DNA of 34,295 bases from Archangium sp. (GTDB taxonomy: Bacteria; Myxococcota; Myxococcia; Myxococcales; Myxococcaceae): positions 1 to 34,295 of the forward strand of contig JANLPS010000209.1 in NCBI GenBank assembly GCA_031367385.1, in the 5' to 3' direction. The notes below the pieces were generated by a model. It did not search any database. It saw only the letters and a program-made list of their open reading frames with translations, and was not told where the DNA came from. How positions within the stretch are numbered: the stretch's first letter is position 1; each line of letters starts with the position of its first letter. Position numbers and translations under genes: made by a program. Shown in pieces: positions 3 to 22,983 of this stretch.

Positions 3-1658
3 CGCGCTCCGTGGCTCCTGACCGTGTCGCTGCTCACCGCCTGTGAAGGAAGCATCGATATTCGGGGCGACCTGACCGATGTCACCCCTGGCATCGAGGC
101 CCCCCAGCTGGCGCTCCGCTGCAAAGCGCCGGGGCAGGGCACCTCGGCGAAAATGCGATTGCTGTGGAAATCTGCGTATTTGGCTGAGCTGGGCGCTCGC
201 CTCGGCCCGGGTGCGGCGACGGTCGCAGAGACGGTTGGGCTCTCGCCGGCCACCGACCGAAACTTCACCTTCGAGACCGCTGGCTCGCTTCAGACCAACG
301 TGACCCTCGAGTCGCTGGCCGATACCGCCGACGCGGTGGCCGCCTGGTCGTTGTCGACCGATGCGGTCGCCCAGTCGGTGTACGGCTGCGCGGCTCGCAC
401 CGTCACGGGCGCCCAAGCTGAGGCCTGCTTCACGACCTTCTTGAGCACCACGGGCGCCCGGCTGTTGCGCCGCTCGCTCAGCTCGAGCGAGGTCGATCAG
501 CTGCTCACCTTCTTCAAAGCCGAGGTGCTCAAAGGTGAGACCGACGGCGTGCAAGAAGGCTTTCGCCAGGGCCTGGCGAGCTTGCTGGTCGACCCCGACT
601 TCTTGTACCTGCGCGACGTGCCCCAGGGTCAGGGCTCGCAGCTCGACGCCTTTTCGCTGGCCTCACGCGTCTCGTTCGCGCTGACCGGCCGAGGCCCCGA
701 TGACGAGCTGTTCAACGCCGCGCGCGATGGCTCGCTGAGCCGCCCCGACGTGCTCAAGACCGAGGTCACCCGCCTGCTGCAGAGCCCCGACGCCCGCGCC
801 CGCTCGTTGGCGTTCTACCGGCAATGGCTCGGGTACGACCGCGGCAGCTTCAGCTACAGCGCCGGCTTCTTGAATGGCCTCGACGCGACCGGCCTCAAAG
901 ACGCGTCAATCGCCGAGCTCGATGCGTTCGTGAATGAGGCCACCTGGTCGAAGAAGGGCACCCCGGCACAGCTGCTCACCTCGAACAGCGTGGCGCCGCT
1001 CACCAAATCGCTGGCGCTCATCTACGGAGCGCAAGAAGGCGCGACCACCTTGCCCGACACCCGCGCTGGGTTGCTTACCCGTGTCGGCATGGTGGCCTCG
1101 GGCGGAGACGACTGGCACGTCGTCGCGCGCGGCCTGGCGGTGGTACAAAAGATTCTCTGCAAAGACATCCCTCCGCCGACCATCAACGTGGCCGACGCCA
1201 TCAAACAAGCCGAGTCGCTCAAGGTCTCGAATGTCGACCGAATCAAGAGTGTCACCGCCGGTGCGGCGTGCGCTGGTTGCCACACCACCATCAACCCGCT
1301 GGGCGCGGCGCGGGCAGACTTCGACGCGGTGGGCCGCACGGTGACCGTCGAGAAACACTTCACGGGCGGCGTGCTCGACTACGAGGTGCCGGTCGTCTCG
1401 ACTGCTGACCTGTCGGTGCCGCTGGGCCGCGAGGTCACCGCCAAGGGGTCGGTTGACCTCTCGAACCTGGTCGCCACGATGCCTGAGTACGACAGCTGCT
1501 TCGCCGCGCAGTACACCCGCAGCGTGCTCGGCCGCGCCGACACCACCGACGGGTGCGTCGAAGACGAAGGGGCCAAGGCGATTTTCAAGGGCGGCTCCAT
1601 CGTCGACGCGATGACCGCCGTGATGACCTCACCCGAGCTGACGCTGTGGAGAGACTAA
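3..1658 (+). CDS. DUF1592/DUF1588/DUF1595-type lipoprotein with a CxxCH motif (5'-partial)
   Basis: The frame is open from the window edge (RAPWLLTVSLLTA|CEG, lipobox). Family-like segments include LASRVSFALTGRGPDDEL, FYRQWLG, RAGLLT, CAGCH..INPLG and a C-terminal SPELT. A DUF1552 gene follows 4 nt later, which is the usual pairing. Confidence 0.85.
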   Translation, partial: RAPWLLTVSLLTACEGSIDIRGDLTDVTPGIEAPQLALRCKAPGQGTSAKMRLLWKSAYLAELGARLGPGAATVAETVGLSPATDRNFTFETAGSLQTNVTLESLADTADAVAAWSLSTDAVAQSVYGCAARTVTGAQAEACFTTFLSTTGARLLRRSLSSSEVDQLLTFFKAEVLKGETDGVQEGFRQGLASLLVDPDFLYLRDVPQGQGSQLDAFSLASRVSFALTGRGPDDELFNAARDGSLSRPDVLKTEVTRLLQSPDARARSLAFYRQWLGYDRGSFSYSAGFLNGLDATGLKDASIAELDAFVNEATWSKKGTPAQLLTSNSVAPLTKSLALIYGAQEGATTLPDTRAGLLTRVGMVASGGDDWHVVARGLAVVQKILCKDIPPPTINVADAIKQAESLKVSNVDRIKSVTAGAACAGCHTTINPLGAARADFDAVGRTVTVEKHFTGGVLDYEVPVVSTADLSVPLGREVTAKGSVDLSNLVATMPEYDSCFAAQYTRSVLGRADTTDGCVEDEGAKAIFKGGSIVDAMTAVMTSPELTLWRD

Positions 1659-1662
1659 ACGC

Positions 1663-3267
1663 ATGGCACGCCTGACCCGCCGAGAGATTCTGAAACGATT
1701 CGGGCTGACCGCGGGCAGCCTGCCCTTGCTCGATGCGCTGGGCCGCAAGGCCTGGGCGGGTGGCCCCGATGGAGGCACCGACGCTGGCACCTACACGCCG
1801 CCGCCCAAGCGCCTGGTCTGCATCTTCATCGGCCACGGCATCTTCGCGCAGAACTGGGTGCCGTTTCAGCCTTCGACGATGCCGATTGGCACCGACTCGC
1901 CTGGCAGCATGCTCAAGGCGGCCAAAGACTACCTGCGCCCGGTGGCCTTTCAGCAGGGCCAAAACTGCAAGATCATCGACCTCGACCCGTACACCGGCGC
2001 GCTCAGCCCGATCTTCAGCGCGAAGTGGCAGGGGCTCAAAGCCAAGACGGCCTTCATTCACAACCTCGGCTGCTCGAACGATTTGATTCAGGGGCACACC
2101 AACACCGCCACGCTGGGCGGCTACAAGAACGCCGACACCATCACCGGCGTGCCGTATGGCACCGTCTTCACCGGCGAGACCATCGACGTGGTCGTCGGCC
2201 GCAAGCTCAACGGCCAAGACCCGTTGGTGCTCAAGGCGCCCGACACCGTCGATGACGTGCGTTTCTTACAAGACGCCTTCAGCCCGAGCGTTCACAAGAC
2301 CGCGACCGGGTACGAATTCGTGCCCTCGTTTCGCGACCCCCGCTCCGTGTGGGACCGCTTGTTCTCAGGGTACATGCCGCCGGTCACCGGCCCGAAGAAG
2401 CGCGACCCCACCGATCGCCGCATCGCGCTGCTCGACCGCACCTTGAGCCGCATCAGCACCATCAAGACCGACTCGCGGCTCTCGGGCTACGACAAGCAGC
2501 GGCTCGAGACCCACTCCGGGTTTCTCGAGGGGCAGCGCACGCACCTGCAGTCAATGAGCTCGATACCGATGGTAAACCCGGTCGTGCCGCCCCAGCGGGT
2601 CAACGACAAGGGCATCAGCGACACCGGCGACACCTTTGCGGTCGCCAAGGCCAAGCTGGTGCGCGCCACCTACCAAAACGCGTCGGCGGCCATCAAGATG
2701 AACAAAGCCCAGGTCGTCACCATCGACGCTGGCCTCGAGAACGGGTGGGTGACCGAAGGCATCGCGCTCGACGGCAACTACCACGGGCAGGGCGGCCACC
2801 TGGCGAACCCGTCTGACGCGAACATCGAGGCGATTCGGCAGGTGCAGCAGTTGCACTTCGACGCCATCGCCGACTTTCTGCTCGACCTCGACGTGCTCGA
2901 AGACCCGGTGAGCGGCGCCACCTACCTCGACAACACGCTGGTGATGATCGGCACCGAGCACGACGGCCGGCCCAATGGGCACCTCCGCGCTGGCCTCAAG
3001 TCAGTGCTGATCGGCGGCTTTGGCACCTTCAAGACCGGCCGCATCTACGACTTCTCGAACCCCGCCTGGTGGAACCGAGAGAATTACGATTTGACGACGG
3101 GCGTCTACCCCGGCTTCTCGTACGGCCGCTTGCTGCGCACCGTTCAAGACTCGTTTCAGCTGACCGCCGCCGAAAAAGCCCAGATGGACATTCAGGCCAT
3201 TTATCACGACTGGTGGCAGACGGCCGACATCACCGACGCAGACAAGCCGCTGCCTGGGCTCACGTAG
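1663..3267 (+). CDS. DUF1552 family protein with a twin-arginine (Tat) signal
   Basis: N-terminus LTRREILK..G, then PPKRLVCIFIGHG, TIDVVVG, LSGYDKQRLETH and TYLDNTLV. It lies directly downstream of the DUF1592-type gene. Confidence 0.85.
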   Translation: MARLTRREILKRFGLTAGSLPLLDALGRKAWAGGPDGGTDAGTYTPPPKRLVCIFIGHGIFAQNWVPFQPSTMPIGTDSPGSMLKAAKDYLRPVAFQQGQNCKIIDLDPYTGALSPIFSAKWQGLKAKTAFIHNLGCSNDLIQGHTNTATLGGYKNADTITGVPYGTVFTGETIDVVVGRKLNGQDPLVLKAPDTVDDVRFLQDAFSPSVHKTATGYEFVPSFRDPRSVWDRLFSGYMPPVTGPKKRDPTDRRIALLDRTLSRISTIKTDSRLSGYDKQRLETHSGFLEGQRTHLQSMSSIPMVNPVVPPQRVNDKGISDTGDTFAVAKAKLVRATYQNASAAIKMNKAQVVTIDAGLENGWVTEGIALDGNYHGQGGHLANPSDANIEAIRQVQQLHFDAIADFLLDLDVLEDPVSGATYLDNTLVMIGTEHDGRPNGHLRAGLKSVLIGGFGTFKTGRIYDFSNPAWWNRENYDLTTGVYPGFSYGRLLRTVQDSFQLTAAEKAQMDIQAIYHDWWQTADITDADKPLPGLT

Positions 3268-16018: not shown

Positions 16019-16113
16019 GCGGGGAGTCCTAAAGCCGAATTGGCCCGCGCGCGAGGGTCCTTCGAGCTCCTCAGGACGCGGCCTTGGCACGAACGGGTGA
16101 TAGAAGGCGCCCC

Positions 16114-17430
16114 ATGTCGTCACCCACCATCGTGGCCATCGCCACCGGGCCCGCCGCGGGTGGCATTGGCATCGTGCGCGTCTCGGGTGATCAATGCCTC
16201 GAGGTCGTGCGCCGCCTGTGCCCCGCGGCGCCCGAGGTGCTCCCGCCGCGAGAGGCGGTGTTCACCCGCTTCGTCGACGCCGATCACTCGCTGCTCGACG
16301 AGGGCCTGGTGCTCTTCTTCGCCGGGCCCCACTCGTACACCGGCGAGAACGTGGTCGAACTTCAGGTGCACGGCGCCCCCCGCGTGCTGCAGCGCTTGTT
16401 GGCCTCGGCGCTCACGGTCGAGGGGGTACGCCTCGCAGAGCCTGGCGAATTCACCCGCCGTGCCTTCATGTCGGGCCGAATCGACCTGGCCCGCGCGGAG
16501 GCAGTCGCAGACCTCATCGCCGCCACCTCGAACAGCGCGGCGCAGGCCGCGGCGCTCCAGCTCGTCGGGGGCCTCTCGCAGCGCATCGAAGAGCTTCGCG
16601 CCCCTCTGGTGGGTCTTCACGCTGACCTCGAGGCCGCGCTCGATTTTCCCGAAGAGGCAGAAGACGTCGAGGTCGACGTGGCCCTGAGGCTCGAGGCGGC
16701 GGCGCTGGCGATCGACCAGCTGCTGCGCTCGGGCCAGGCGGGCACGCTCATTCGGCGCGGGGCTCGCGTGGTGCTCTACGGGCCGGTGAACGCGGGCAAG
16801 TCGACGCTCTTCAATCGGTTGGTGGGTGACGCAAAGGCCATCGTCGACTCCGAGCCGGGCACGACCCGCGATGCTCTCGAAGCCCGCCTCGAGCTTGAGG
16901 GCCTGGGCATCACGCTGGTCGACACCGCTGGCCTGCGCGACGCCCCCGGCCGCATCGAAGCGATTGGCATTGAGCGTACCCGGCAGGCGCTGGCTTCGGC
17001 AGATCTGGCGGTGCTGGTGATGCCTCCGAACGCGAGCGCGGTGCAATCGGCGCAGTGGCGCAGCGAAGTCACAGACACCCGCCGCCTCGACGTGTCGGGC
17101 AAGGCCGACCTGGGCCCCGGTGCGGCTGATCAGCTGGCGGTCTCTGGCGAGACTGGCGCGGGCGTGCCCGAGCTTCGCGCGGCCATCTTCGAGACGCTGG
17201 CGCCCGGCGACGCGTCTGGCGTGCTGATCAGCAGTGAGCGCCATCTCTTCTGCCTCAAGACCGCAGCGGGGGCCCTCGAGCGCGCACGCTCCGCTGCGAA
17301 GGTGTCGACGCTCGAGGTCATCGCAGGCGAAGTCGGCCTGGCGCTGACCGCCCTGGGCGACATCACCGGCCGCGATGTCTCAGCCGACCTGCTCGACGCG
17401 ATTTTCGCGCGGTTCTGCATCGGGAAATAG
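16114..17430 (+). CDS. mnmE: tRNA modification GTPase MnmE (TrmE)
   Basis: TIVAIAT..GGIGIVRVSG, PHSYTGENVVELQVHG, AEPGEFTRRAF, G1 GPVNAGKST, PGTTRD, DTAG and terminal FCIGK. Confidence 0.97.
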   Translation: MSSPTIVAIATGPAAGGIGIVRVSGDQCLEVVRRLCPAAPEVLPPREAVFTRFVDADHSLLDEGLVLFFAGPHSYTGENVVELQVHGAPRVLQRLLASALTVEGVRLAEPGEFTRRAFMSGRIDLARAEAVADLIAATSNSAAQAAALQLVGGLSQRIEELRAPLVGLHADLEAALDFPEEAEDVEVDVALRLEAAALAIDQLLRSGQAGTLIRRGARVVLYGPVNAGKSTLFNRLVGDAKAIVDSEPGTTRDALEARLELEGLGITLVDTAGLRDAPGRIEAIGIERTRQALASADLAVLVMPPNASAVQSAQWRSEVTDTRRLDVSGKADLGPGAADQLAVSGETGAGVPELRAAIFETLAPGDASGVLISSERHLFCLKTAAGALERARSAAKVSTLEVIAGEVGLALTALGDITGRDVSADLLDAIFARFCIGK

Positions 17431-17458
17431 GCGCTCGGCGCATAGACTGAATCGCTCA

Positions 17459-18625
17459 ATGGCTCGTCAGAAGCGAATCAAGAAGATCGCCCGATACCCG
17501 GCCCTGCCCACGCGCTGGCGAGCGCTGATCACCAAGGGCGAGCCCTTCATCGTCACCGGCGGAGCGCGCTCGCGGCTGACGCTCGCGCTGGTCGCCGAAT
17601 TGGGCACCTCGACCGAAATCGTGGTGAAGAACCAGGCCACCGGCGATGTGGGCCAGGCCACCTTGAGCGAGCTGGTGGGCTGCCTCGATCAAGATGACGC
17701 CATTTGGTACATGGCGCAGCACGCCGTGCCGGCCTGTCTCGATGGGCACTTTCCGCTCCGGCCGATTACCGGTGTCGCCGGGTTACGAAAGCCCAACATC
17801 TGGCTCGGCTCGACCCGCGCTTTCACGCACCTGCACCAAGACGTGCTGCACAACTGCCTCTTGCAGCTCGACGGCAAGAAGCTGTTCACCGTCTTCGCTC
17901 CGCAAGACGACGTGTACTTGTATCGCGAGCCGACCGTGGTGCGGCCGAACTACTCGCAGATCAAGCTCACCAGCGCCGTCGACGCCAAGCAGTTTCCAGA
18001 CTTTCGCAAGGCGACGCCGTTCTTGGTCGAGCTGGGGCCGGGCGATCTGTTCATGATGCCGGCCTTCTGGTGGCACGAGGTGCTCACGCGCGAATCGAGC
18101 TTGATGCTGAACTACTGGTTCGCTCCGACGCTCGAGGCGGTTGAGGGCATCGACGTCGAGCGGCACATCTTCTCATCGGCGATCGCGCGCCGGCACGTGC
18201 TCAAGCACTTCGATCTCACCTCGATGAAGTCAGACCATGGCTTGGTCGAAGCGTTGGTGCGCCAGAAGCTGGGCCTGTTGGCGGCGGTGGTGTTGGGTGA
18301 CATGGGCGACGAATTTCTGGGCAGGCTCAGCGCCAAGCACCGGTTCGACCCGAGGTTGTACCCGGCGACGTGCGAAGCGCTCCTCAAGACCAAGGGCAAG
18401 TTGCCGAGCGGCGCGGCTGACCTGCTCAAAGAGATTCGCGACGAAGCGGCGACCGCCGACACCTTCTTGCGCAGCAAAGCCCCGGCGCCAGCGCTCAACA
18501 CCGCGGCGCTCAATCAGCGCTTGCGACGGTTGTGCTCGGCCTCCCGCGTGCCCGGGTGCAGCCAGATGGTGCAGAACAACCGCGCGTGGATGAAAGACGT
18601 GAGCGCCGACAGCTACCTGTTCTAA
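17459..18625 (+). CDS. JmjC/cupin-like (Cupin_8-type) Fe(II)/2-oxoglutarate oxygenase with a C-terminal extension
   Basis: EPFIVTG, YMAQ, NIWLG, THLHQD (HxD), NCLLQLDGKK, LGPGDLFMMPAFWWHEV (distal His) and LNYW. Confidence 0.9.
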   Translation: MARQKRIKKIARYPALPTRWRALITKGEPFIVTGGARSRLTLALVAELGTSTEIVVKNQATGDVGQATLSELVGCLDQDDAIWYMAQHAVPACLDGHFPLRPITGVAGLRKPNIWLGSTRAFTHLHQDVLHNCLLQLDGKKLFTVFAPQDDVYLYREPTVVRPNYSQIKLTSAVDAKQFPDFRKATPFLVELGPGDLFMMPAFWWHEVLTRESSLMLNYWFAPTLEAVEGIDVERHIFSSAIARRHVLKHFDLTSMKSDHGLVEALVRQKLGLLAAVVLGDMGDEFLGRLSAKHRFDPRLYPATCEALLKTKGKLPSGAADLLKEIRDEAATADTFLRSKAPAPALNTAALNQRLRRLCSASRVPGCSQMVQNNRAWMKDVSADSYLF

Positions 18626-18666
18626 AAAAAGAACCGCGAAGAAAGGCGAGTGCCCCTCTTCGCGGT
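18624..18666 (-). terminator. intrinsic (Rho-independent) terminator oriented for the minus strand
   Basis: The minus strand reads accgcgaagaggggc-actc-gcctttcttcgcggt (15-bp stem, two G:U pairs) then tcttttttt. It begins 26 nt after the peptide stop codon. Confidence 0.85.
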
Positions 18667-18692
18667 CAGTGATGAAACGACGCGAGCCTGAA

Positions 18693-18800
18693 TTACGCGG
18701 CCGCGTGCGAGGGCCAGCCGATACCGCCGACGACCTTCTTGGCCTGGTCTGCAGACAACGGCTTCAGGTTCAGGCTGGGCTTCTTGGTCAGCTTCTTCAT
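18693..18800 (-). CDS. 35-aa precursor peptide with a double-glycine leader (candidate RiPP precursor), not in the ORF track
   Basis: MKKLTKKPSLNLKPLSADQAKKVVGG|IGWPSHAAA*. Codons are mostly G/C-ending. SD-like AAAGGG lies 7 nt before the ATG, behind an A-rich stretch. It has a dedicated terminator. Confidence 0.85.
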   Translation of the reverse strand: MKKLTKKPSLNLKPLSADQAKKVVGGIGWPSHAAA

Positions 18801-19049
18801 GGGGAGACCCTTTGGTTTTTGAATCGTGAGTGAGCGCTACGGCGGCGATTCGTACCAGCCGGTAAAAGAGGTGGTCAAGTGTGTGCCGGGTACAAAACGC
18901 GTCAGCCGGTGAGACGTTGCGCGCCCGAGAGGTGCCCTGATCCGCTCCCTGCGAAATTTTGCAGCGGCATGGTGCGCAACGCACGATCGACCCAGGGCGC
19001 GTTGCGACACTGGCTTGCGTCGATCATCTGTGCTCGACGTGCAGCCACG

Positions 19050-20108
19050 ATGCCCACCAAACTGCTGTGGCTGCTGTGCCTGGCACTCGCTGCTTGCGGG
19101 AGTACGGCGGGTGCGATTGATGCCTCGATTGATGCCTCGATCAGCGACGACGCGGGTCTCAAACCCGATGCAGGGCAGCCCGTCGACGCCGGAGAAGCCG
19201 ATTCGGGCCAGGCCCCTGACGCGGGCTCAGGTCTCGACGCCGGCGTGCGGGCTCCGATTCAAAGCGTGTTCGTCATCGTGATGACGAGCCACTCTTGGAG
19301 CACCCTCACCGGCGCGCAGGCCAGCTCGGCACCGTACATCAATCAACTGGTGGTCTCGGCCGCGCACGCCGAGCAATACTTCACGCCTCCCAACAATCAC
19401 CCGAGCGAGCCCAACTTCATCTGGCTCGAAGCGGGTGACAACCTGGGCATCACCGACAGCAATTCACCGTCAGCGAATCACAAGGCGACGACCGAGCACT
19501 TGTCGACGCAGCTCGAAGCGGCGGGCATCTCGTGGCGGGCCTACGCCGAAGGCATCTCTGGCACCAGCTGCCCGCTCACCGCCAGCGGCTCTTACAACCC
19601 CAAGCATCTGCCGCAGGTGTACTTCGACGACGTCACCGATGGCACCATCGGCACCAGCGCGCACTGCATCTCGCACGTGCGGCCGTACACCGAGCTCGCG
19701 GCTGACCTGAGCGCCGACCGGGCGGCGCGATACACCTTCATCACGCCAGATCTCTGCAACGACATGTCGGGCATCGCCTTTGGCAGCACGTGTGCGAGCA
19801 ACCTCATCAAAGCGGGCGACGACTGGCTGCACACGGCGGTGCCAGTCATCACCGCTTCGGCCGCGTTCAAGCGGGGCGGCGTGCTGTTCATCGTGTGGGA
19901 CGAGGGGGAGCCGACTGTCGGCGCCGGAGCCGACGGGCCGATCGGGCTCATCGCCATCGGCGCGAGCGTCAAACCAGGCTTCGCAAGCCAGGTTCACTTC
20001 ACCCACAGCAGCTTGCTGAGAACCATCGAGGAGATCTTCGGGGTCACTCCGCTTCGGGGTGCGGCGACCTCCAATGATCTCTCAGCGCTCTTCACCAGCT
20101 TCCCCTAG
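19050..20108 (+). CDS. phosphoesterase-family (AcpA/phospholipase C-like) lipoprotein with degenerate motifs
   Basis: Lipobox LAA|C, DAG linker, VFVIVMTSHSW, HPSEPNF, SWRAYAE, YNPKH, FITPDLCNDM, FIVWDE and FTHSSLLRTIEEIFG. Confidence 0.85.
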   Translation: MPTKLLWLLCLALAACGSTAGAIDASIDASISDDAGLKPDAGQPVDAGEADSGQAPDAGSGLDAGVRAPIQSVFVIVMTSHSWSTLTGAQASSAPYINQLVVSAAHAEQYFTPPNNHPSEPNFIWLEAGDNLGITDSNSPSANHKATTEHLSTQLEAAGISWRAYAEGISGTSCPLTASGSYNPKHLPQVYFDDVTDGTIGTSAHCISHVRPYTELAADLSADRAARYTFITPDLCNDMSGIAFGSTCASNLIKAGDDWLHTAVPVITASAAFKRGGVLFIVWDEGEPTVGAGADGPIGLIAIGASVKPGFASQVHFTHSSLLRTIEEIFGVTPLRGAATSNDLSALFTSFP

Positions 20109-20118
20109 CAGCGAGGGG

Positions 20119-20205
20119 TCAGAAGAACAGGCGAGCGAACCGTCGTCGAGGGCCACGGGGGAGTCGACGCCCCGCTGGGCCACGGAGCCGTGCACCTTCA
20201 TGCCC
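20119..20205 (-). pseudogene. internally deleted remnant of the 3' part of the TlpA-like gene
   Basis: 20130-20197 matches 23206-23273 at 65 of 68 nt. 20119-20136 on the minus strand reads GCT CGC CTG TTC TTC TGA (ARLFF*), the same C-terminus as the intact gene. Confidence 0.85.
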
Positions 20206-20220
20206 GATGACGTCAGACCG

Positions 20221-22983
20221 TCAGGCGTCTCGCGGCCGCCCGGCCCGACGCCCCACCAACGCGAGCGCGAGGGCGATGATCAGCTCGTTCGCGCCCACTG
20301 CGTCACATGAGCAGCCGACCGCTTTGGGGGTGACTCCGGGGCATTCAACGGCAATCGAGAACACCTGCTCATCGCGGCCCAACGCATTGGTGACGACGAG
20401 GCGCACCGAGGTCGCCCCGGCGTTGGCTTTCTGCGGAGTCCACGTCAGCTCGCCGGTCATCGCGTCGATGCTCAGCTCGGCCGGCAACGCGCCGCCGACG
20501 AGGGGCTCGATTGAGTACGTCAGCGGAGCCGCACCATCGGCCTCGGGCAACCGGGTGCCTGAGTAGTGGTACGGCACTCCGCAGAACGCGGTCGTCGAGG
20601 GCGTCGAGCGAAACCTGGGAGCCCCCGATACCGCCGCACCCGCGTCTGGGCTCGCCATCATCGACCCTGCGGCAGTGACCTGCACCGCGAAGCACTGGAG
20701 CGCCTCACCGACGGCGTTGGTCGCCTTCAAGCACACCGAAAACGCACCGACCGACGCGGGCACCCACGCAACGGCGCCGGTCTGGGCATCGATGGTCAAC
20801 CCTGGCGGCCCTGCGAGCACCGACCAGGTGATGGGGCCCGAGCCGGTGGCCTGCACGGTCGAGTCAGCGTCGTACGCGTAAGGGGCATTGAGCACGGCGC
20901 TGAGCGTGGCGGTGCTGGTGATGCTCGGGCTGGTCAAGACCTCGAGCGCAAAGGTCTGCAGGTCGGTCGCGGGGCCATCGCTCGCGCTCAACGAGAAAGC
21001 GACAGGCACGGTGCCTGAGGCGGCCCACGTCACCAGACCGGTCGCTGAAACGGCCGCTCCTGCGGGCGCGGTGGGCAATGACCAGGTGACCGCCGCGGTC
21101 GCACCGACCACGGTCGCTTGGTACGAGAACGGCGTACCCGTCTTGACCCCCTTCGAGGGCAGGCTGACGATCTTCAAGGCCGCCGAGAGGTGCTCGACGA
21201 CGGCTCCGACGGTGCCGGGGGCCGCTCCACCACCCCCCGCCGCGCTGCGGGTCACCGAGCTGGCGATGCTGCTGGCATCGATGCGCACGATGCCTCCGCC
21301 GCCCCCCGAGCCACCGATGGTGCCGAGGCCCCCGCGCGCGGTGATCTGGCCCGCTCCCGACAGCGGCCCGGTCGAGAGCACGACGGTACCCCCGGCGCCG
21401 CCGCCGACCGGGTCGGTGACGTACTGACCTGTGAACGCCGCCTGACCATCGGCCGAGATGCGGCCATCGACGATGGTCGACGCGGCGGAGATGCGAAGTA
21501 TGCCGCCGCCGTTGCCGCCCGCGACGTTGATGTTGTTCGACCAGCCGCCGCCGCCCCCGCCCGGGTACACCGGCAGCTCGGGGTTGTCATAGACGGCGGC
21601 CACCTGATTCGCGGTCACTGCTTGACCGCCCAGCCCGGCGTGCGTGCCTCCGTTGCCCGGGCCGCTGCCGGCGACAATGGCTGATGAGGTCGGGTCGATG
21701 GTGGCGCCGTACTTGTCGAACATGCGGCCGTTGAGCCCGGCCTGGAGCCCCAGGCCCGTCGCGTCAATCAACCCGCCGGAGAAGAGGTGGAGGCTGCCAG
21801 CGACGGCGAGATTGAAGGTGCGCACGAACCCGGAGTGGGTCACGACGCCGGTGGCCGTGATGTCGAGATCTGGCACCGAGAGCGTCTTGTCGAGCACCAG
21901 GGTGCCGCCCAGCACCAGCTTGCGGCTCAGGGCAATTGGTTCTTTGACCGTCATCGTGCCGTCGACCGTGCTCAGCGAGAGGTGATCTGCGGCGCGGGGG
22001 TGGTTGAAGGTGATCTTCACTCCGGCCGGTACTGCGATTGGCTGCACCACGGTCGAGTCGCCTGAGAGCGTCAGCGCTCCGCCTGACTCGAAGAGCACTG
22101 CTGCGAAGCTCTCGCCCCCAGTCAGCTCGACCGGCGTCACCACGTGCAGCCGGTTCATCGAGTCGACCAGCGACACGCTCCCCGAGGCGCCCGCCCCGAA
22201 GGCCTTGGTGGTACCGCTGAAACTCCAGGTGGTGAAGCTCGCCTTGATTCGCCCGGCTCCGCCAGCGGCTGCTGCGAGGCCCCCGTTGGCGAGAATCGAG
22301 CCGCCACCCGAGATGGTGGTGGCGACGATGCCGACGCTGCCGCCAGCGCCCGAACCCGCGCCAACGCCGCTGATGCCATTGGCCCGAATTTCACCGTTGA
22401 GCACCAGCGAGCCCGCGGCGAGGTCGCAGATGCCGCCGCCCGAGCCACCGCCGTTCTCGCCGCCGCCCCCGCCCGGGTTCAACATCAGCGGGTTGCCATA
22501 CACCGGCGCCGCCGGAAACTGGCCGTACCCCCCGGGCTCACCCAGCGTGGCGTGGCTGCCGCCGGGGTTGAAGATCGGGCCGGCAACCACCACGAAGGTG
22601 CTGGGGTCGAGGGTCGCGCCGCTGCGACCGAAGCCTGCTGAGCCACCGCCGTGCAGGCCTTTGCCGTCGGCGTCGACGCTGCCGCCGAAGTCGACGGTGA
22701 GCGTGCCGGTGACCGCCAGCTGCAGCCGAATGACCGTGTCGTCGACCGTGACCCGACCACCGCCCAGCACCGTCATGTCGCCGGTGACGGTCAGTTTGGC
22801 GTTCACCACCAGCACGCCACCCGACGTCACCTGTACCTGGGTCACGGCGGTGGGGCTCGAGATCACGTACGGGCTGTTGCTGCCATCGACGACGATGCTC
22901 TGGGCGGCGACGGTGCTCGCAGCGAGAGAGATCACCAACGCGCAAGTGGTCGCAGCCCGACGTGACACACCGGCGTTCTTCAA
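20221..22983 (-). CDS. large surface protein: two Gly-rich domains, three Ig/cadherin-like (He_PIG-type) repeats and a MYXO-CTERM-like anchor
   Basis: Signal ending VAA|Q, duplicated GG-rich modules, and repeats of the form PxGxxIdaxTGxxxWxP. C-terminus VGCSC, then a hydrophobic helix, then RR. The start codon (TTG) is uncertain. Confidence 0.85.
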   Translation of the reverse strand: MKNAGVSRRAATTCALVISLAASTVAAQSIVVDGSNSPYVISSPTAVTQVQVTSGGVLVVNAKLTVTGDMTVLGGGRVTVDDTVIRLQLAVTGTLTVDFGGSVDADGKGLHGGGSAGFGRSGATLDPSTFVVVAGPIFNPGGSHATLGEPGGYGQFPAAPVYGNPLMLNPGGGGGENGGGSGGGICDLAAGSLVLNGEIRANGISGVGAGSGAGGSVGIVATTISGGGSILANGGLAAAAGGAGRIKASFTTWSFSGTTKAFGAGASGSVSLVDSMNRLHVVTPVELTGGESFAAVLFESGGALTLSGDSTVVQPIAVPAGVKITFNHPRAADHLSLSTVDGTMTVKEPIALSRKLVLGGTLVLDKTLSVPDLDITATGVVTHSGFVRTFNLAVAGSLHLFSGGLIDATGLGLQAGLNGRMFDKYGATIDPTSSAIVAGSGPGNGGTHAGLGGQAVTANQVAAVYDNPELPVYPGGGGGGWSNNINVAGGNGGGILRISAASTIVDGRISADGQAAFTGQYVTDPVGGGAGGTVVLSTGPLSGAGQITARGGLGTIGGSGGGGGIVRIDASSIASSVTRSAAGGGGAAPGTVGAVVEHLSAALKIVSLPSKGVKTGTPFSYQATVVGATAAVTWSLPTAPAGAAVSATGLVTWAASGTVPVAFSLSASDGPATDLQTFALEVLTSPSITSTATLSAVLNAPYAYDADSTVQATGSGPITWSVLAGPPGLTIDAQTGAVAWVPASVGAFSVCLKATNAVGEALQCFAVQVTAAGSMMASPDAGAAVSGAPRFRSTPSTTAFCGVPYHYSGTRLPEADGAAPLTYSIEPLVGGALPAELSIDAMTGELTWTPQKANAGATSVRLVVTNALGRDEQVFSIAVECPGVTPKAVGCSCDAVGANELIIALALALVGRRAGRPRDA

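Follow-up and report, generated by a model that had tools for sequence, protein, structure and literature searches.

An unannotated reading frame of 35 codons that faces the 3′ end of a JmjC oxygenase gene in the genome of an Archangium species raises the question of whether the two genes are chance neighbors or an enzyme and its substrate. The preliminary description of the window (the whole stretch of DNA analyzed here, 34,295 nucleotides long) took the latter view, proposing a candidate minimal RiPP system in which the oxygenase oxidizes the short core of a double-glycine precursor peptide.

The precursor gene, its leader and the probable means of export

Both genes are present as described: the JmjC gene at 17459..18625 on the forward strand and the 35-aa precursor gene, recognized by its open reading frame, codon use and homologous precursors, at 18693..18800 on the reverse strand, the two being convergent with 67 bp between their stop codons. 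The coding signals ascribed to the small frame hold up as well. Its codons are host-like (GC3 0.91; CAI 0.763, as compared to 0.645–0.772 for ten genes of the window), with a CAI that high being reached by 5 of the 147 short ATG frames of the window, the precursor frame included. A Shine-Dalgarno-like AAAGGG (18808..18813, reverse strand) lies 7 nt before the peptide ATG, and GAAGGAG or GAAAGG occurs at similar spacing upstream of the precursors at three homologous loci introduced below (L019, L016 and L015). The gene also has its own strong intrinsic terminator (18624..18667, reverse strand), a 16-pair stem (18667–18632) followed by a T run, whose hairpin region has a folding energy of −30.1 kcal/mol (z −4.1; 0 of 200 shuffles equally stable); it was the sole site found by the minus-strand terminator scan of 16500–20500, a count that by itself is not above chance (shuffles 2.6 ± 1.9). 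The sigma-70 consensus promoter scan yielded 0 sites, and TTGACC (18873..18878, reverse strand) might be a weak −35 element of the peptide gene; TTGAC is also seen about 50–75 nt upstream of the precursor at L015, L016 and L020 and is absent at L019. Near one end of the window, a separate gene pair at 24–3267 resembles what we take to be the DUF1592/DUF1552 pair common in myxobacteria.

From sequence and alignment, residues 1–26 (18723..18800, reverse strand) can be read as a leader made up of a Lys-rich KKPxLxLK strand, an amphipathic stretch and a terminal GG. V23, A20 and L15 occupy positions −4, −7 and −12 before G25-G26 and are all hydrophobic, as described for PCAT substrates, which combine a GG, GA or GS site with hydrophobic residues at these three positions (PMC10885120). 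The earlier assignment of a double-glycine leader hence fits the PCAT rule, and the same GG site and hydrophobic positions are common to the ComC/LahA-type leaders that serve in PCAT secretion, from which the present system differs in that its transporter is unlinked. The GG is invariant in all 13 aligned precursors. Curated leader models score the precursor below their thresholds (Pfam Bacteroid_pep PF14406, E 0.18 and 12.6 bits against a cut-off of 25; NCBIfam lanthipeptide leader NF038158, E 0.07 and 13.2 bits against a cut-off of 27), so that support from curated libraries is weak; the case for the precursor rests on conservation at homologous loci.

The preliminary description had cautioned that the window carries no transporter or protease. 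This stands for the locus itself, with no such gene linked to the module at any of five loci, but is weakened by the genome search that it had proposed: the window's own genome (G000, 7.97 Mb) encodes two complete C39-ABC transporters (716 aa on contig C365 and 743 aa on C277), each with C39, ABC_membrane and ABC_tran domains. Both are unlinked to the precursor/JmjC module, the C277 copy being accompanied by two HlyD-type genes; three C39 matches are found in a same-genus genome (G001). Cutting at the GG and exporting the product would likely fall, in trans, to one of the C39-ABC transporters.

The same genome holds further GG precursors in other settings. A thioamitide-like cluster split over two contigs whose ends overlap by 73 bp (G000:C215:13826–18144 and C451:6919–8858; L102 and L089) codes for YcaO, TfuA, an FKBP-TylF methyltransferase, a carnosine-N-methyltransferase-like enzyme and two GG precursors whose cores, KPSCHAAF and WKPSCHAAA, resemble that of the window; cross-talk of this cluster with the window peptide is possible. 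At G000:C512:103–3504 (the L122/L123 set), a radical SAM gene and two JmjC_2 genes, one of them sharing 50% identity with the second cupin of L003, accompany a GG precursor with the core VFCVTPWD, a near-twin of which (SLFCVTPWD) lies ahead of a GMC oxidoreductase gene at G000:C201:19–1671. A LanC-like gene flanked by two identical GG precursors (core LCESAHGGA), with an ATP-grasp gene adjacent, is found at G000:C19:31617–34811 (L103), while G000:C365:9001–16079 (L104) combines a PCAT, a C39-VKOR fusion and a metallo-beta-lactamase-fold gene with a Cys-rich GG precursor at 16079–15915. More short GG-leader frames occur on C158, C178, C92, C480, C485, C270, C333, C428, C286 and C47; those of C158, C178 and C485 directly follow 1400-aa genes, two of which are WD-repeat-like by eye, and that of C270 carries VVNSPGRL repeats.

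Pairing of the oxygenase and the precursor across loci

Full-length readable homologues of the JmjC enzyme were found at two loci of G001, L015 and L016 (identities of 47% and 39%), and at the metagenomic loci L018 and L019 (both 60%) and L020 (44%). L018 is not counted as independent because it is near-identical to L019, which leaves five loci (the window, L019, L015, L016 and L020) with enzymes 39–60% identical to that of the window, a small and related sample in which three of the five come from one genus. The generic GG motif for the scan was fixed before any profile was built. At all five loci, a Lys-rich GG precursor lies within ~1.5 kb of the full-length clade enzyme, whereas the same scan of more distant JmjC matches, many of them short or eukaryotic, gave a loose motif match at 3 of 76 loci and a Lys-rich one at none. 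With ~18 Lys-rich GG leader frames in the 7.97 Mb of G000, the chance of such an encounter is ~0.7% per 3-kb neighborhood. The precursor and the JmjC enzyme are co-conserved; the search for short GG-leader frames beside JmjC homologues that had been proposed as a check, and which could have gone against the pairing, returned the same leader type throughout.

What surrounds the pair is far less constant. The precursor of L019 (core IGWPSHAAAN) is co-directional with the enzyme and lies 101 bp upstream of it; that of L016 (IVGLPPPYAAN) is likewise co-directional and lies downstream; and the two tandem precursors of L015 (ETIVGLKAY and SIVGLKAE), like that of L020 (STVIGLGAAF), are convergent with it. 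The earlier caveat that the genes are convergent rather than co-transcribed is thus true of the window but does not describe a fixed arrangement, two of the five loci being co-directional and the peptide being transcribed apart from the enzyme in the other three. A second, different cupin is encoded between enzyme and peptide at L015, L016 (where its frame is broken in the assembly) and L020, while the JmjC enzyme is the sole linked oxygenase in the window and at L019. All other neighbors differ at every locus and the peptide is retained. Additionally, an enzyme (P0006) and a precursor (P0018) are each found on a single contig of 9877 bases, which is suggestive of a sixth pairing.

At two further loci the pair is not seen intact. 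At L017, a third paralogue of G001 cut off at a contig end, no such precursor was found in the 6.4 kb downstream, the upstream DNA being missing; at L017:3661–6875 (G001:C153), three unnamed genes face this paralogue in convergent orientation, the first of them weakly matching DUF6065. At L018, an IS21-family element (L018:2590–5281) with a 5-bp duplication sits in the first codons of the precursor, and L019 represents the uninterrupted allele; since the enzyme is left intact while the precursor is interrupted, the pair may be dispensable. At L019:923–1741, a gene for a class I SAM methyltransferase lies 414 bp upstream of the precursor in the same direction; it was not seen at the other loci.

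The enzyme itself (388 aa, with a start codon supported by homologue alignments) matches Pfam Cupin_8 (PF13621; E 3.9e-29, 102.8 bits, cut-off 27.4), and its structural model (pLDDT 87.8) matches JMJD5, TYW5, FIH and JMJD7, with a Foldseek E of 3e-14 to JMJD5. These human proteins are the closest solved folds of the catalytic domain, yet they share only 17–23% identity with it, offer no match to its HEPN-like tail and act on other substrates. The intact HxD…H triad noted earlier comprises H126, D128 and H206, of which the first two fall in an HxDxxHN motif; these residues and T123, N132, K141 and W220 (17834..18076, forward strand) do not vary among the 9 clade sequences and align with JMJD5 and TYW5, and the latter four presumably line the cosubstrate site, as at the corresponding positions of JMJD5 and FIH. 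Sequence and model together point to an FIH/JMJD5-group JmjC Fe(II)/2-oxoglutarate oxygenase, with predicted activity and a predicted role as the modifier of the peptide.

The catalytic domain is followed at about residues 257–365 (18227..18553, forward strand) by a HEPN-like helical domain, recognized by structure match and tail profile. Its best VIA-align match is the HEPN structure 2hsb (Z 8.6, a value below the level that excludes a generic helical bundle; rmsd 2.6; 105 aligned), and HEPN entries are frequent among the top 17; the domain has no Pfam match, no Foldseek match at E ≤ 0.001 and an uninformative best ESM Atlas value of 0.78. RxxxxH, the nuclease motif of HEPN domains, is absent from the aligned clade tails, and the domain likely plays a structural role. 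Many distant bacterial matches likewise have such a tail behind their JmjC domain, and a profile made from 19 aligned examples proved homologous to the clade tail (hhalign 92.5%, as against ≤0.21% for 20 shuffles). These relatives include a PoyI-like hydroxylase, and several others adjoin NRPS genes, in line with JmjC genes beside NRPS genes described by Iyer et al. (PMC2938197); because distant relatives so often have such neighbors, the JmjC-plus-tail architecture does not by itself imply a RiPP. Precursor-like short frames are also seen near distant JmjC-plus-tail genes at L073:5333–5554, L075:5316–5531 (with an ABC transporter) and L079:3283–3480 (with DUF6895), which are possible further RiPP families. 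In a quick tree (41 rows; two dropped because they lack the anchor motif), the window clade separates from all these on a long stem with an SH-aLRT of 100. The tail profile finds matches only in G000 and G001 among 401 Myxococcota genomes, as does the full enzyme profile, at full length, among 201 family genomes; the peptide profile has matches in 3 of the 401, those within the clade being circular because the profile was built from those sequences. The clade appears to be rare, and its distant full-length members may be missed.

Co-folding of the pair, which had also been proposed as a check, gave a score of 0.61 as against 0.02 for the best control. Among solved pairs 116 of 157 attain the mark applied, and among mismatched pairs 2 of 215; this calibration is only rough with the alignment used and the Fe ligand. 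At least 63% of contacts are shared between runs, and the partner pLDDT is at least 56. In the confident part of the interface, leader residues 7–16, 19 and 22–23 lie on enzyme residues 53–83, a β-hairpin and helix (17615..17707, forward strand) on which the KPSLNLK strand of the leader docks. L10, L12 and K13, the best contacts, are among the most conserved leader positions; on the enzyme side V56, L72 and W83 are invariant in 9 of 9 sequences and N58, G65, A67, C75 and A81 are kept in 8 of 9, with the interface as a whole being barely more conserved than the rest of the enzyme (0.61 versus 0.58). The model supports binding of the leader by this hairpin and helix. The HEPN-like tail is not supported as the leader binder, with only residues 387–388 appearing in the interface. 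For the core, no confident placement in the active site was obtained, and for this reason no structural prediction of the modified site is offered.

The proposed modification and its rivals

These observations are probably best explained by a minimal two-gene RiPP system, in which leader-guided hydroxylation of the core by the JmjC enzyme is followed by cleavage and export in trans. The oxygenase would hold the 35-residue precursor by its Lys-rich leader, chiefly at residues 7–16 as in the predicted docking, and hydroxylate one side chain of the core by a +16 Da C–H hydroxylation with Fe(II), 2-oxoglutarate and O2; an unlinked C39-ABC transporter would then cleave after the double glycine and export a nine-residue product.

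The predicted core, IGWPSHAAA (residues 27–35; 18696..18722, reverse strand), is under purifying selection: the window and L019 differ by 5 synonymous and 0 replacement changes over the GG and the nine core codons, whereas their leaders are not the same. A precursor profile search recovered 12 proteins among 267 candidates, six of them new; of these, five carry IGWPSHA and the other carries IVGLVPYARQ, and one is labeled 'bacteriocin-like protein' by its source. Of 12 related cores, five come without known neighbors. IGWPSHA is invariant in seven of the 12 related precursors, and no core has a Cys. Trp and His, on the latter of which FIH also acts, are each present in seven cores, Pro in nine, and Val and Leu in five. 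Only Ile, Gly and Ala are universal, with Ile27 being the sole such residue other than Gly or Ala. The core type tracks the motif of the enzyme, HQDVLH going with the Trp cores (the window and L019) and H[QH]D[HY]MH with the Leu cores at three loci, and the second cupin is confined to loci whose cores contain Val or Leu, among them the separate G000 locus with the core VFCVTPWD; this restriction would leave the shared Ile to the clade enzyme.

The preliminary description had named Trp, Pro and His as candidate targets, a set that would miss Ile27, common to all 12 cores, and that includes Pro, absent from three. If the reaction is a hydroxylation, covariation tentatively places Ile27 first, at somewhat less than even confidence, because it is present in all cores, the second cupin occurs only with Val/Leu cores and PoyI acts on Val, being a hydroxylase of Val and Asn (PMC10373908, PMC9505594). 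His32 is a possible second choice, a little behind it, because the cores conserve an aromatic position and a precedent exists in ThoJ, given as a hydroxylase of dimethyl-His in PMC11575548. Trp29 is a more doubtful candidate, put forward on the precedent of CgnC, the Fe/2OG enzyme of crocagin, which hydroxylates Trp and Tyr (PMC10070186); Pro30 or some other residue would be an unlikely target.

The best-surviving rival, if an unlikely one, accepts the pairing and takes the enzyme for an oxidative cyclase or desaturase (−2 Da), which would join the Gly-adjacent Trp/Leu carbon to an aromatic residue 3–4 places further on to give a small macrocycle. In its favor, 11 of the 12 cores have an aromatic residue 4–5 places past the conserved Gly, mostly with Pro, Gly or Ala in between, the seven residues of the Trp subgroup are strictly kept as in a constrained scaffold, and the window and L019 have no second linked oxygenase; moreover, the crocagin Fe/2OG enzyme makes a ring system together with two partners (PMC10070186). 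However, the core SIVGLKAE is devoid of an aromatic residue and the spacing varies, the characterized JmjC RiPP enzymes CzlI, BipG and PoyI are described as giving +16, and CgnC requires partner proteins that are absent here. An extended form of such a scheme, equally improbable, would see here a new RiPP class with a stand-alone JmjC protein as its defining catalyst, an oxidative Trp/Leu-to-His/Tyr/Phe cross-link, and a leader read by a JmjC hairpin instead of an RRE, set within a genus-wide toolkit of ~18 scattered GG precursors that share a leader grammar and exporters, each with an enzyme of its own.

Still less probable is that the peptide is an unmodified secreted GG peptide, with the JmjC enzyme acting elsewhere on a free amino acid, a receptor or an imported peptide. 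The peptide gene's own terminator and its separate transcription at three of the five loci would suit this, as would the several other GG peptides of G000 without an obvious modifying neighbor and the enzyme relatives beside NRPS genes, which presumably use non-ribosomal substrates; against it, the predicted interface employs the leader, present only before export, and the core type covaries with the active-site motif. Very improbable, too, is that the enzyme is transcribed together with mnmE and hydroxylates tRNA or a translation factor, the small frame then being an unrelated neighbor: mnmE lies on the same strand, with the JmjC gene beginning 28 bp behind it, and the tRNA enzyme TYW5 is its best PDB sequence match, but conserved linkage is ruled out, mnmE adjoining the enzyme at none of the four other loci and a different, unrelated gene following mnmE in G001, and a housekeeping role does not fit a clade found in only 2 of the 401 Myxococcota genomes searched. 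Just as hard to credit is a toxin–antitoxin or defense unit in which the tail would act as a nuclease held in check by the peptide: the tail resembles HEPN folds, including Csm6 and HEPN toxins, but lacks RxxxxH, has a Z of 8.6 that helical bundles can reach through a common arrangement, and faces a peptide with an export-type leader whose predicted contact is with the N-terminal part of the JmjC protein.

Relation to known systems and implications

Among the known systems closest to the favored hydroxylation system is PoyI, as which we identify, from its source name and gene order, the 'hydroxylase' AFS60645.1 of Ca. Entotheonella pTSY (L059), where an I42 inhibitor, a C1 protease and Cupin_8 follow in order. 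Like the window enzyme, it is ~390 aa long, with a Cupin_8 JmjC domain (hhalign 99.6%, 31% identity over 202 columns), the HxDxxHN motif, a homologous helical tail and a GG-leader precursor as its substrate, in the window a predicted one. PoyI differs in being one of seven tailoring enzymes that act on a 49-residue proteusin core behind a long NHLP leader, whereas the window enzyme is the only linked oxygenase, would serve a 26-residue leader and a nine-residue core, and falls in a separate clade in the quick tree. At 26 aa and with no such Pfam match, the window leader is not of the long nitrile-hydratase-like proteusin type. Lanthipeptides and thioamitides were rejected as well: no LanB/C/M or YcaO-TfuA genes are linked to the module, whose neighbors are mnmE and a phosphoesterase, and the cores are Cys-free.

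That JmjC enzymes act on RiPP precursors is already known. CzlI of curacozole (PMC11575548), which needs flanking sequence, and BipG of biphenomycin (PMC12707348) are JmjC Fe/2OG enzymes that add +16 to a precursor peptide; as far as their descriptions allow comparison, they differ from the window enzyme in being tailoring enzymes of multi-gene clusters, and the top structural homologue given for CzlI is YxbC. Crocagin (CgnA/B/C/E) offers a parallel that is likewise myxobacterial, with a very short core, Ile/Trp chemistry nearby and an Fe/2OG enzyme; it differs in its three-residue core, in its need for CgnB and CgnE and in the removal of the leader by CgnD, such partners being unlinked in the window, and CgnC is not termed a JmjC protein in the available text of PMC10070186. 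A GG precursor with an Fe/2OG enzyme is also already known from the sma cluster (PMC12186529). In the literature covered, for the most part main texts from journals open without subscription, no description of the clade, of the core IGWPSH or of such a one-enzyme family was found. What is apparently new here is a rare FIH-type, apparently one-enzyme variant of PoyI-like architecture, together with a predicted natural product that is apparently undescribed.

With one soluble enzyme and one 35-residue peptide, this is about the smallest testable RiPP system, and its natural variants, the Trp cores with one oxygenase and the Val/Leu cores with two, predict the site of each enzyme. If confirmed, it would provide a peptide oxygenase that is directed by a leader and whose predicted binding surface is defined, and it would stand in, in compact form, for PoyI-like enzymes, whose rules of recognition are poorly understood. 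One might guess from the short linear peptide that the product is a secreted signal rather than an antibiotic. The system would also, if confirmed, afford a view of small-peptide signaling that escapes both gene callers and RiPP tools in uncultured myxobacteria.
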